Below, piece after piece: positions 47,054 through 48,502 of a stretch of 64,000 nucleotides of DNA. The position numbers were made by a program, and so were the translations under genes. Positions within the stretch are counted from its first letter, which is position 1, and each line of letters starts with the position of its first letter. Source of the stretch: a virus; the IMG/VR virus record IMGVR_UViG_3300033145_001096, positions 650-64,649 of that record; one strand, 5' to 3'. The notes under the pieces are model-generated. The model made no database searches, was not told the DNA's origin, and was given only the letters and a program-made list of their open reading frames with translations.

Positions 47054-47375
47054 TAAGAGTTCTTAACAGACAGCCACAATCTATACAATTGTTAGGAGTA
47101 TGCAGCAATATATTGTAAGCTGGGTTATTTTTTCCATTTATAATTCCACCGTAGCATTTATAACATCTTTTAGAATTACTCGAAATCTTTCCCCCACAGT
47201 CGATACATTTATTAGGGTTATCGCTATAAAATCCATATTTGTAATTACTATTTTTCTTTCCAGTTAAATGTTTATGACTACAACTTTTACACATACCCTT
47301 GCCATATAAAGCAGTTTGCCAATGGATTTTGGTTTTACAAATCAAACAATAATATTTGATAAAAGTTTTATTCAT
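47040..47375 (-). pseudogene. Truncated N-terminus of a zinc-finger (CIDCG repeat) endonuclease
   Basis: Repeats like those of the other HNH genes; stops exactly at the foreign insert. Confidence 0.7.
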
Positions 47376-48502
47376 TTATATAACTCCTTTAATAATTTTT
47401 TTCCTTTTTCAGAAATCCCTCTTCCTCTTGGAGTTCGTAATATCAGTCCTAATTGTATAAGATAAGGTTCATATTGGAACATATAATTTGCTTGACTTGT
47501 ATCTAAATAAGAGCATAACCCCTGCATACCTACTTTATCATTGCTATTTAAATAGTCTAAAATTTTCATATCAGTTTTTGTTAATCCTCGTTCTTTATCT
47601 ACAATATCATAAACTTCTAACGTCTTATCAATATTTCCTATATAAATTAAACTTTCGATTAATCTATTAGCTTTTCTTGGAGTAAGCCTTGAATTTTTGG
47701 CTAATAAGGTATAATTTTCTTCTGATACTTGAATGTCGGGAAAAATTTTATTTTTATATTGTTTAATAATAGTTTTCATCTCTTCCAAATTATAATTTTC
47801 TAACGTAATATGTATTTTCATTCTGTCTATAAAAGGTTTCCATTTTCTTATCAATTCTCCTTTTTCAGTGGTAGCTCCTATAAAAGTAAACGGCTTTATA
47901 AATTTCTCGTTAATTTTTCCCTCTTGCAAAATAGGATATAAAATTTCTATTAATTGAGGAGATAAATTATGCACTTCATCTATAAAGAATATTACATTTT
48001 TTGACTCTGATTGATTTATCTTTGTTAATATTCCGATTAACTGTTCAGGATTAACTAATTCACTTGCTATATGCTCGATAATTTCTGCTTGTAAATATTG
48101 TTTAATCAAATAGACCAATGTAGTCTTACCAAACCCCGCAGACCCGTCTATAATAAGATGAGGAAACGGAGTATTCATTTTTGAAGTTCCTTTTATAAAG
48201 GCTTGTATTATATTTTTTGCGTGTTCTTGTCCTATATATTCTTTCCAATTACTGGGAGTAAACTTCGCAATTTTCACACTTTCATCAGGAGTGTAATCAG
48301 GAATTTTTGAAGTGTCAAATTTAGGATTGCTTACTTCTACTTTCAAAACATCGTCTTTACCCTCTTCTCCCTCTTCCATTTCTTCTATTTCCACTTCCTC
48401 GTCGGATAAAGGAGCAGTAACAAATTTAATTGTCTTAAAAAGTATAATTACTCCTCCAACAGGAATTACAATAAATATAATTAACCAAACGATTAAAAAC
48501 AT
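47372..48502 (-). CDS. ruvB: RuvB-like AAA+ ATPase with N-terminal transmembrane helix
   Basis: EYIGQ, GSAGFGKTT, FIDEVH, GATT, DR, TPR, EPYLIQLGLILRTPRGR; SD AAGGA before the Met of the hydrophobic N-terminus. Confidence 0.9.
   Translation of the reverse strand: MFLIVWLIIFIVIPVGGVIILFKTIKFVTAPLSDEEVEIEEMEEGEEGKDDVLKVEVSNPKFDTSKIPDYTPDESVKIAKFTPSNWKEYIGQEHAKNIIQAFIKGTSKMNTPFPHLIIDGSAGFGKTTLVYLIKQYLQAEIIEHIASELVNPEQLIGILTKINQSESKNVIFFIDEVHNLSPQLIEILYPILQEGKINEKFIKPFTFIGATTEKGELIRKWKPFIDRMKIHITLENYNLEEMKTIIKQYKNKIFPDIQVSEENYTLLAKNSRLTPRKANRLIESLIYIGNIDKTLEVYDIVDKERGLTKTDMKILDYLNSNDKVGMQGLCSYLDTSQANYMFQYEPYLIQLGLILRTPRGRGISEKGKKLLKELYK

Follow-up and report, generated by a model that had tools for sequence, protein, structure and literature searches.

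A RuvB-fold ATPase with a truncated RuvA-docking hairpin and a predicted membrane anchor is encoded near an Xer-like recombinase in an uncultured phage lineage

We analyzed a 64,000-nt stretch of viral DNA (hereafter the window), corresponding to positions 650–64,649 of the IMG/VR record IMGVR_UViG_3300033145_001096, and focused on a RuvB-like AAA+ ATPase gene located at 47372..48502 on the minus strand (all coordinates are window positions, and the features of this gene and its product given below lie on the same strand). The gene encodes a protein of 376 amino acids (aa), designated P0001, which was characterized from its open reading frame (ORF), Pfam matches, the closest match in the PDB, and an AlphaFold2 (AF2) model compared with known structures using Foldseek. 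An Xer-like tyrosine recombinase gene (44283..46070, minus strand; 595 aa including an intein) lies 1.3 kb downstream. The whole virus record comprises 69,856 bp, with a G+C content of 29% and an estimated completeness of 74%, and its replication and recombination genes encode a family-B DNA polymerase, a primase-helicase, a ligase, a UvsX-like recombinase (16255–17229), an SbcC-like protein (714–2147), and a RuvC-like protein (17707–18321). The latter gene is ~29 kb away from the ruvB-like gene, consistent with the distance from ruvC noted in an earlier reading of the window (the original prediction). No close relative of the phage was found among 50,697 GenBank phage records: its family-B polymerase shares no more than 25% identity with any of them, and a 529-aa protein from the structural region has no match among GenBank phages. 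The phage and its relatives represent an uncultured lineage with genomes of ~90–100 kb and without close relatives in GenBank.

The affiliation of P0001 with RuvB is supported by both sequence and structure comparisons. In Pfam, the protein matches RuvB_N (PF05496; 6.9e-23) and the RuvB_C winged helix (PF05491; 6.6e-15), both above the gathering cut-offs, with the RuvB lid domain reaching only 4.9e-4, under its cut-off. The best solved relative is RuvB of Thermotoga maritima (4.7e-33), and RuvB proteins account for the top 18 matches to solved structures, the next family being MgsA (7.8e-9). The AF2 model, for which an alignment of 72 sequences was used, has a mean predicted local distance difference test (pLDDT) score of 91, with residues 65–376 scoring above 88. 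Its 45 top PDB matches in Foldseek are RuvB chains (TM-score ~0.8 by target length, 300–320 columns aligned), with clamp loaders far behind (TM-score 0.48), and the three-domain RuvB fold is present in the model, including the lid, despite the sub-threshold Pfam score of the latter. The NCBIfam RuvB equivalog models are not reached, with 184 bits for NF000868 (cut-off 282) and 165 bits for TIGR00635 (cut-off 299). In the family alignments, the Walker A motif (residues 120–128; 48119..48145) has invariant G123, G125, and K126 and nearly invariant T127 and T128, and the Walker B motif (residues 171–176; 47975..47992) has invariant D175 and E176, followed by H-N where canonical RuvB has H-R. Sensor 1 (T211/T212), the arginine finger (R227), and sensor 2 (R276) were assigned from alignments A1–A3, T211, R227, and R276 being invariant or near-invariant. 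R356, T357, P358, G360, and R361 of the RTPRGR motif in the C-terminal winged helix (residues 356–361; 47420..47437) are likewise invariant or nearly so (A2). In RuvB, the β8-β9 "arginine finger" hairpin is a double-stranded DNA (dsDNA) contact (PMC10272136). Judged from the alignments and the model, the product of 47372–48502 is a RuvB-fold ATPase in which the catalytic site and the main DNA hairpin are intact. Thus, both the RuvB identity and the preserved set of motifs claimed in the original prediction were borne out.

One departure from canonical RuvB is the truncated presensor-1 β-hairpin (residues 191–203; 47894..47932). The stretch between the LYP and PFT motifs comprises 13 residues, compared to 25 in T. 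maritima RuvB, exactly as counted in the original prediction, and in the HMMER alignment the difference takes the form of two gaps totaling 12 residues. The spacing from Walker B to sensor 1 amounts to 29 residues versus 41 in 118 canonical RuvBs (measured with the canonical RuvB profile), and the AF2 model retains a mere 2+2-residue mini-hairpin at this position. In canonical complexes, this "feature β-hairpin" of RuvB docks domain III of RuvA (PMC10272136), in agreement with the RuvA-binding role that had been attributed to it. Searches with the RuvA_N, RuvA_C, and HHH_5 profiles gave no matches across the 69.9-kb record, and RuvA_N was absent from all 19 related phage records, 5 of which are 90% to 100% complete, so that the lack of ruvA reported for the window extends to the entire record and to its relatives. 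A RuvA supplied by the host could still take part, yet its docking site on the motor is gone.

Two basic residues are also replaced, in P0001 and throughout the short-hairpin clade of relatives described below, a difference that the original prediction had not noted. In place of the Walker-B-adjacent arginine of canonical proteins (DEIHR in 112 of 120 RuvBs), P0001 has an asparagine and the clade S, N, G, A, or T. The basic residue following GATT, present as TT[KR] in ~100 of the 120 canonical RuvBs, is a glutamate in P0001 (TTE) and is replaced clade-wide; we take this position to be R147 of Thermus thermophilus RuvB. In the T. thermophilus protein, the arginine adjacent to Walker B (R101) contacts DNA, and a figure legend of the same paper also places the post-GATT basic residue against DNA, its text naming R104 and not R147 (PMC10272136). 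At least one of the two lost residues grips DNA in canonical RuvB.

Another departure is an N-terminal extension of ~80 residues relative to RuvB. Six nucleotides separate a Shine-Dalgarno (SD) sequence, AAGGA (48509..48513), from the ATG at 48502–48500, and residues 2–22 (48437..48499) are uncharged and strongly hydrophobic, with a Kyte-Doolittle mean of 3.12 over 19 residues (KD19). Lysine and arginine are absent before this segment and two lysines (K23 and K26) follow it, a pattern that fits an N-out/C-in anchor rather than a signal peptide. An acidic linker (residues 30–56; 48335..48415) with 13 D/E and 2 K/R scores pLDDT 48–66 in the AF2 model, which fits disorder. The start codon upstream of the segment is credible because conservation with a relative, L009, covers the SD sequence, the ATG, and ~56 codons from there but breaks off just upstream: the nucleotide identity is 77% from the SD sequence to codon ~56, the SD and ATG block is identical, and the similarity falls abruptly to background ahead of the SD sequence. 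Within the hydrophobic segment, the differences from L009 are synonymous or exchange one hydrophobic residue for another. The first internal methionine is M42, and no SD-like sequence precedes it. Accordingly, the SD-preceded hydrophobic N-terminus and acidic linker of the original prediction were recovered, and a start downstream of the segment, which that prediction had named as its possible undoing, is the opposite of what was found. A single-pass membrane anchor formed by residues 2–22, with the ATPase predicted to face the cytoplasm, is therefore a credible assignment.

The extension also carries a clade-specific motif (residues 53–70; 48293..48346), a hydrophobic strand followed by x-F/L-D-x-S-K-I-x-x-Y, which canonical RuvB lacks and which recurs ~20 residues before the RuvB core in clade members with and without the transmembrane (TM) segment. 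A second clade motif, W/F-x-x-x-P-L/F, stands either directly after the TM segment (FVTAPL in P0001, residues 27–32) or, in the form MGFFxWLxEPL, at the extreme N-terminus. In TM-bearing members, the segment is often followed at once by W/F-x-x-x-P-L, and many TM-less members start with a short hydrophobic motif of the MGFFxWLxEPL type. The comparison with L009 (70,058 bp) further revealed a mosaic, just two stretches being 70% to 92% identical at the DNA level. One (48335–48514) contains the SD sequence and the start of the motor gene up to codon ~56, with the TM segment and linker, and the other (45470–46460) contains the gene for a 157-aa helical protein lying between motor and recombinase (cluster c12; 46045..46518, minus strand) and the N-terminal part of the recombinase. 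The ATPase core situated between these DNA-similar stretches is only 41% identical to that of L009 at the protein level and falls into another subclade of the tree; the TM-linker module has therefore seemingly been exchanged apart from the core.

To place P0001 among its relatives, we combined several searches. In a word-indexed search, ~20 clusters scored between 1e-199 and 1e-67, and canonical RuvB appeared only after a gap, at 1e-34; an exhaustive search of representatives at 50% identity added dozens of further members. The short hairpin (spacing of 27–32) was found in 84 full-length sequences, compared to 120 canonical (40–42) and 37 intermediate ones. ESM Atlas neighbors fall into clusters of 50–86 members, 67% to 100% of which are labeled viral, and the clade is large and essentially exclusively viral. 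A scan of 185,579 prokaryote species genomes with a motif pattern, which can miss distant members, yielded a single match, L057, on an 8.2-kb contig binned with a metagenome-assembled genome of Lutibacter sp. This contig is a weak hint of hosts in the Flavobacteriaceae, which fits the G+C content of 29%. No clade members were detected among the 50,697 GenBank phage records, where the best tblastn matches are canonical-type RuvBs with ~30% identity. Several RuvB-like homologues of 626–706 aa (P0133, P0153, P0177, and P0181) match the query in two stretches and are probably intein-bearing.

The distribution of the anchor within the clade is uneven. With a TM segment called where the N-terminus is hydrophobic (KD19 ≥ 1.6), a call that depends on this hydropathy threshold and on metagenomic start calls, 26 of the 84 clade members, but none of the 120 canonical or 37 intermediate RuvBs, carry one. 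In all 26, K/R residues are absent ahead of the segment and number 2.3 on average in the 12 residues after it. On the tree of ATPase cores, parsimony requires 14 changes of the trait, and well-supported branches make at least 9 of them unavoidable; even so, the trait is clustered, each of 500 label shuffles having required more changes. In the subclade of P0001, 14 of 17 members are TM-bearing, so that the close homologues do keep the segment even though most of the clade lacks it, leaving the original prediction supported near the window and not across the family. A search for TM-bearing RuvB homologues and for ruvA in their genomes had been suggested as a check; 26 such homologues were found, and RuvA_N was in none of the 19 related phage records. 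Since the hairpin is lost clade-wide and only 26 of 84 members are anchored, the membrane cannot stand in for RuvA generally, contrary to the central proposal of the original prediction. The anchor thus seems to be a recurrent accessory of the N-terminal module and not what accompanies loss of the RuvA interface.

The original prediction did not connect the motor with its Xer-like neighbor, which the comparison of loci brought to the fore. In Pfam, the recombinase matches Phage_integrase (8.9e-17), a SAM-like N-terminal domain, and Intein_splicing (4.3e-5), and the record contains no other integrase-family gene. Its length of 595 aa is due to the intein; none of the 23 orthologues in related loci has one, and these measure 259–303 aa and retain the R, K, HxxRH, H, and Y residues. 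Matches of the recombinases to the XerA, XerC, and XerD models span the whole protein but score under the equivalog cut-offs. Among 26 short-hairpin loci from ~20 distinct phages, the recombinase lies downstream of the motor gene on the same strand in 24, at a distance of −3 to 2479 bp, and is the sole neighbor common to all subclades. In a 25th locus, situated at a contig end, the recombinase is found at the other end of the same contig. Each of the 19 related records contains exactly one integrase-family gene, and a RuvC-like gene is present in 5 of them. In contrast, none of 23 loci of phage RuvB-like proteins with longer hairpins has this recombinase within 8 kb.

Taken together, these observations lead us to propose, tentatively and with slightly less than an even chance of being right, that P0001 is a RuvA-independent, RuvB-derived dsDNA motor that is coupled to the recombinase and, in the subclade of the window, tethered to the membrane. 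The protein would form a hexameric pump on duplex DNA that does not need RuvA and would work together with the neighboring Xer-like recombinase. The motor might bring recombination sites to the recombinase and switch the enzyme on, as FtsK does for XerCD, or it might move or clear the Holliday-junction intermediate of the tyrosine recombinase. In the subclade of the window, the anchor would hold the ring still, such that ATP hydrolysis would move the DNA. The gene probably serves site-specific recombination and not classical Holliday-junction repair, because it adjoins the only Xer-like recombinase of the phage in nearly all relatives; the presence of a RuvC-like gene in just 5 of 19 records likewise speaks against a classical RuvABC role. 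The near-absence of the clade from prokaryote genomes (1 of 185,579 species in the motif-pattern scan, which can miss distant members) argues against a role for the recombinase as an integrase in lysogeny and favors one in the lytic cycle, as does its absence from the 50,697 GenBank phage records, and the likely task is the resolution or circularization of replicated phage genomes rather than lysogenic integration.

Several observations weigh against this proposal. The loci are phylogenetically related, for which reason 24 of 26 does not amount to 24 independent observations, and the shared gene order can be inherited without functional coupling. In the remaining exception, the L008 record, the recombinase is located 11 kb downstream, and no recombinase follows within 3 kb of the gene for the TM-bearing homologue P0007 (68% identical to P0001; 4.7-kb contig L055). 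Loss of the Walker-B-adjacent arginine and of the post-GATT basic residue leaves DNA translocation of the RuvB type in doubt. Two thirds of the clade are TM-less, so tethering would be inessential to the core function, and the TM calls themselves depend on the hydropathy cut-off and on start codons assigned in metagenomic sequences. A complex prediction for P0006 (residues 40–380) with its cognate recombinase from L005 scored 0.00, which is evidence neither way. Finally, a perfect 13-7-13 inverted repeat (41900–41932), none being expected from shuffling 14 kb, and a second palindrome centered near 41955 share an AT-rich gap (41900–41983) 2.3 kb downstream of the recombinase, yet the sequence of the inverted repeat is absent from all fetched loci, relatives have no comparable perfect palindrome near the recombinase, and no recombination site conserved among them emerged there. 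Given that Xer sites are imperfect, perfect palindromes are a weak test for a recombination site.

The closest competitor holds that the motor is a general one of homologous recombination, that is, a RuvA-independent helicase for branch migration or fork remodeling that acts with the UvsX-like, SbcCD-like, and RuvC-like proteins, its adjacency to the Xer-like recombinase being inherited only. The phage does encode UvsX-like, SbcC-like, and RuvC-like proteins, a ligase, and a family-B polymerase, and some RuvBs, e.g., that of Mycoplasma, are described as helicases that RuvA does not stimulate (PMC3364216). However, the RuvC-like gene occurs in 5 of 19 related records and the Xer-like recombinase in 19 of 19, the homologous recombination genes are ~29 kb away, and targeting to junctions would go unexplained without a junction-binding partner; we therefore consider this account rather unlikely. 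A smaller chance attaches to the scenario of the original prediction, in which a stand-alone, membrane-tethered dsDNA translocase uses the membrane as its stator, has nothing to do with the recombinase, and serves genome entry, replication tethering, or superinfection exclusion. The predicted anchor, the hairpin loss, and the lack of a phage RuvA all accord with it, as does the position of the gene amid small genes of unknown function on the replication-gene strand. It is countered by the clade-wide loss of the hairpin against an anchor in 26 of 84 members with at least 9 changes on the tree, and it leaves the linkage to the recombinase unexplained. Moreover, the first genome must already be inside the cell before the protein can be made, and the neighborhood contains no sign of entry or exclusion functions. 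The data point to none of the three roles, and we regard this scenario as distinctly improbable.

The remaining two alternatives concern what kind of protein P0001 is. If the hydrophobic N-terminus were no functional anchor, owing to a mis-called start or a peptide that does not insert, the protein would be soluble, and the short MGFFxWLxEPL-type motif that replaces a full TM segment in many clade members lends this view some color. It is hard to reconcile with the conserved SD sequence and ATG, the coding-type conservation through the segment, the lack of an SD-like sequence before M42, the positive-inside asymmetry in all 26 TM-bearing members, and the absence of any such segment from 157 canonical and intermediate RuvBs, which together make it very unlikely. 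Scarcely more can be said for a replication accessory factor built on the RuvB scaffold (a clamp loader, helicase loader, or origin-binding initiator), which we deem highly improbable. The best PHROG matches of P0001, at 1.4e-17, are to families annotated as "clamp loader", the 74%-complete record yielded no AAA+ (PF00004) match other than the ruvB-like gene and no separate clamp loader, and the relatives encode replisomes with family-B polymerases. On the other hand, RuvB matches are far stronger in both sequence and structure, clamp-loader NCBIfam models scoring at most 41 bits and the Foldseek TM-score being 0.48, and the RuvB-specific winged helix with its RTPRGR motif is kept. In several relatives, moreover, the ruvB-like gene coexists with a gene for a distinct gp44-like clamp loader and with a PCNA-like clamp, and given the weak clamp-loader matches and these separate loaders, the clamp-loader reading was rejected. 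Neither the gp44-like loader nor the clamp was seen in the 74%-complete record, and in relatives L010, L012, and L020 both are encoded a few kb downstream of the recombinase.

Comparison with known systems helps to delimit the proposed motor-recombinase module. The RuvB proteins of the RuvAB(C) system (T. maritima 1IN4, T. thermophilus 8EFV, and Streptococcus thermophilus 7PBL) are homologous to P0001 in all three domains, with ~30% to 34% identity. Unlike them, P0001 has a hairpin shortened by 12 residues, two replaced basic residues, and an extension of ~80 residues with a TM segment, and its gene is linked to that of a tyrosine recombinase instead of ruvA and ruvC, in a phage without a recognizable RuvA. 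FtsK/SpoIIIE proteins combine a membrane anchor, a flexible linker, a hexameric dsDNA motor, and a C-terminal winged helix, and FtsK acts with XerCD at dif in the resolution of chromosome dimers. P0001 and its neighbor share this layout of anchor, linker, dsDNA motor, winged helix, and Xer-type recombinase, but the resemblance is one of analogy and not of homology. FtsK is of the RecA type, whereas P0001 has the AAA+ fold of RuvB and no match to FtsK-family models in Pfam or NCBIfam; it has a single TM helix versus four in FtsK, and only a third of its clade is anchored. In addition, no element resembling KOPS or dif was identified, and coupling to the recombinase is read from gene order alone. 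By this analogy, P0001 might be an AAA+ counterpart of FtsK, in which RuvA has been swapped for the membrane and a new N-terminal module and which would directly activate the Xer-like recombinase so that replicated phage genomes are resolved or circularized at the membrane; we offer this as a speculation with a small chance of being correct. A further precedent for membrane-tethered DNA transactions in phages is p16.7 of phi29, a membrane-anchored DNA-binding protein that organizes phage DNA replication at the membrane and, like P0001, combines an N-terminal TM anchor with a cytoplasmic DNA-binding part. It is not an ATPase, has no homology to P0001, and has no link to a recombinase. Searches of the literature, in an incomplete library, returned no account of a phage RuvB-recombinase module or of a membrane-anchored RuvB.

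The genes located between motor and recombinase vary among the loci and belong mostly to multi-copy zinc-ribbon, Endonuclease_7-like, or other homing-endonuclease-like families. In the window, a 111-aa zinc-ribbon ORF (47040..47375, minus strand) overlaps the stop codon of the ruvB-like gene and shows weak matches to multi-copy zinc-ribbon proteins and no family match; it is probably the remnant of a free-standing gene of the homing-endonuclease type and not a partner of the motor. This ORF and the downstream 89-aa ORF resemble the N- and C-terminal parts of one gene, the latter matching the ends of 397- and 448-aa proteins in L018 and L004. Zinc-ribbon proteins of the homing-endonuclease-like type are encoded at 47040–47375, 46518–46787, 20735–21481, and 59048–59935. 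The small downstream genes (Endonuclease_7 in L004, zinc-ribbon proteins) were considered as RuvC-like partners and dismissed, being multi-copy, variable in position, and homing-endonuclease-like. The c12 protein occurs in the closest relatives only, with homologues in L009, L005, and five metagenome proteins and no family match; its candidacy as a RuvA analogue was set aside in view of the few homologues, the lack of a family match, and an unusable AF2 model (pLDDT 49). Most other neighbors of the ruvB-like gene are small genes on the replication-gene strand, for most of which no family match was obtained. At 49477–49836, the window encodes a protein with an N-terminal hydrophobic segment (cluster c1), also found in 10 related loci. 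In the 11 loci, c1 proteins are encoded 0.6–3.9 kb upstream of the motor gene, and the copies in relatives are much longer, some with collagen-like repeats.

RuvB, a textbook motor, has been regarded as acting solely with RuvA at Holliday junctions. Should the coupling to the recombinase be real, the locus would represent a new module of motor-assisted site-specific recombination, convergent with FtsK-XerCD from an unrelated ATPase fold, and would show how RuvA can be dispensed with in loading and holding a RuvB ring. If the more specific FtsK-like scheme holds true, P0001 would be the first AAA+ DNA translocase tethered to a membrane, as well as the first motor of the RuvB family with site-specific recombination as its dedicated task. 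The natural TM-bearing and TM-less variants, together with the compact, intein-free recombinases, render the question testable in vitro. For the uncultured lineage of ~90–100-kb phages to which the window belongs, the finding provides an annotation for a conserved core module.

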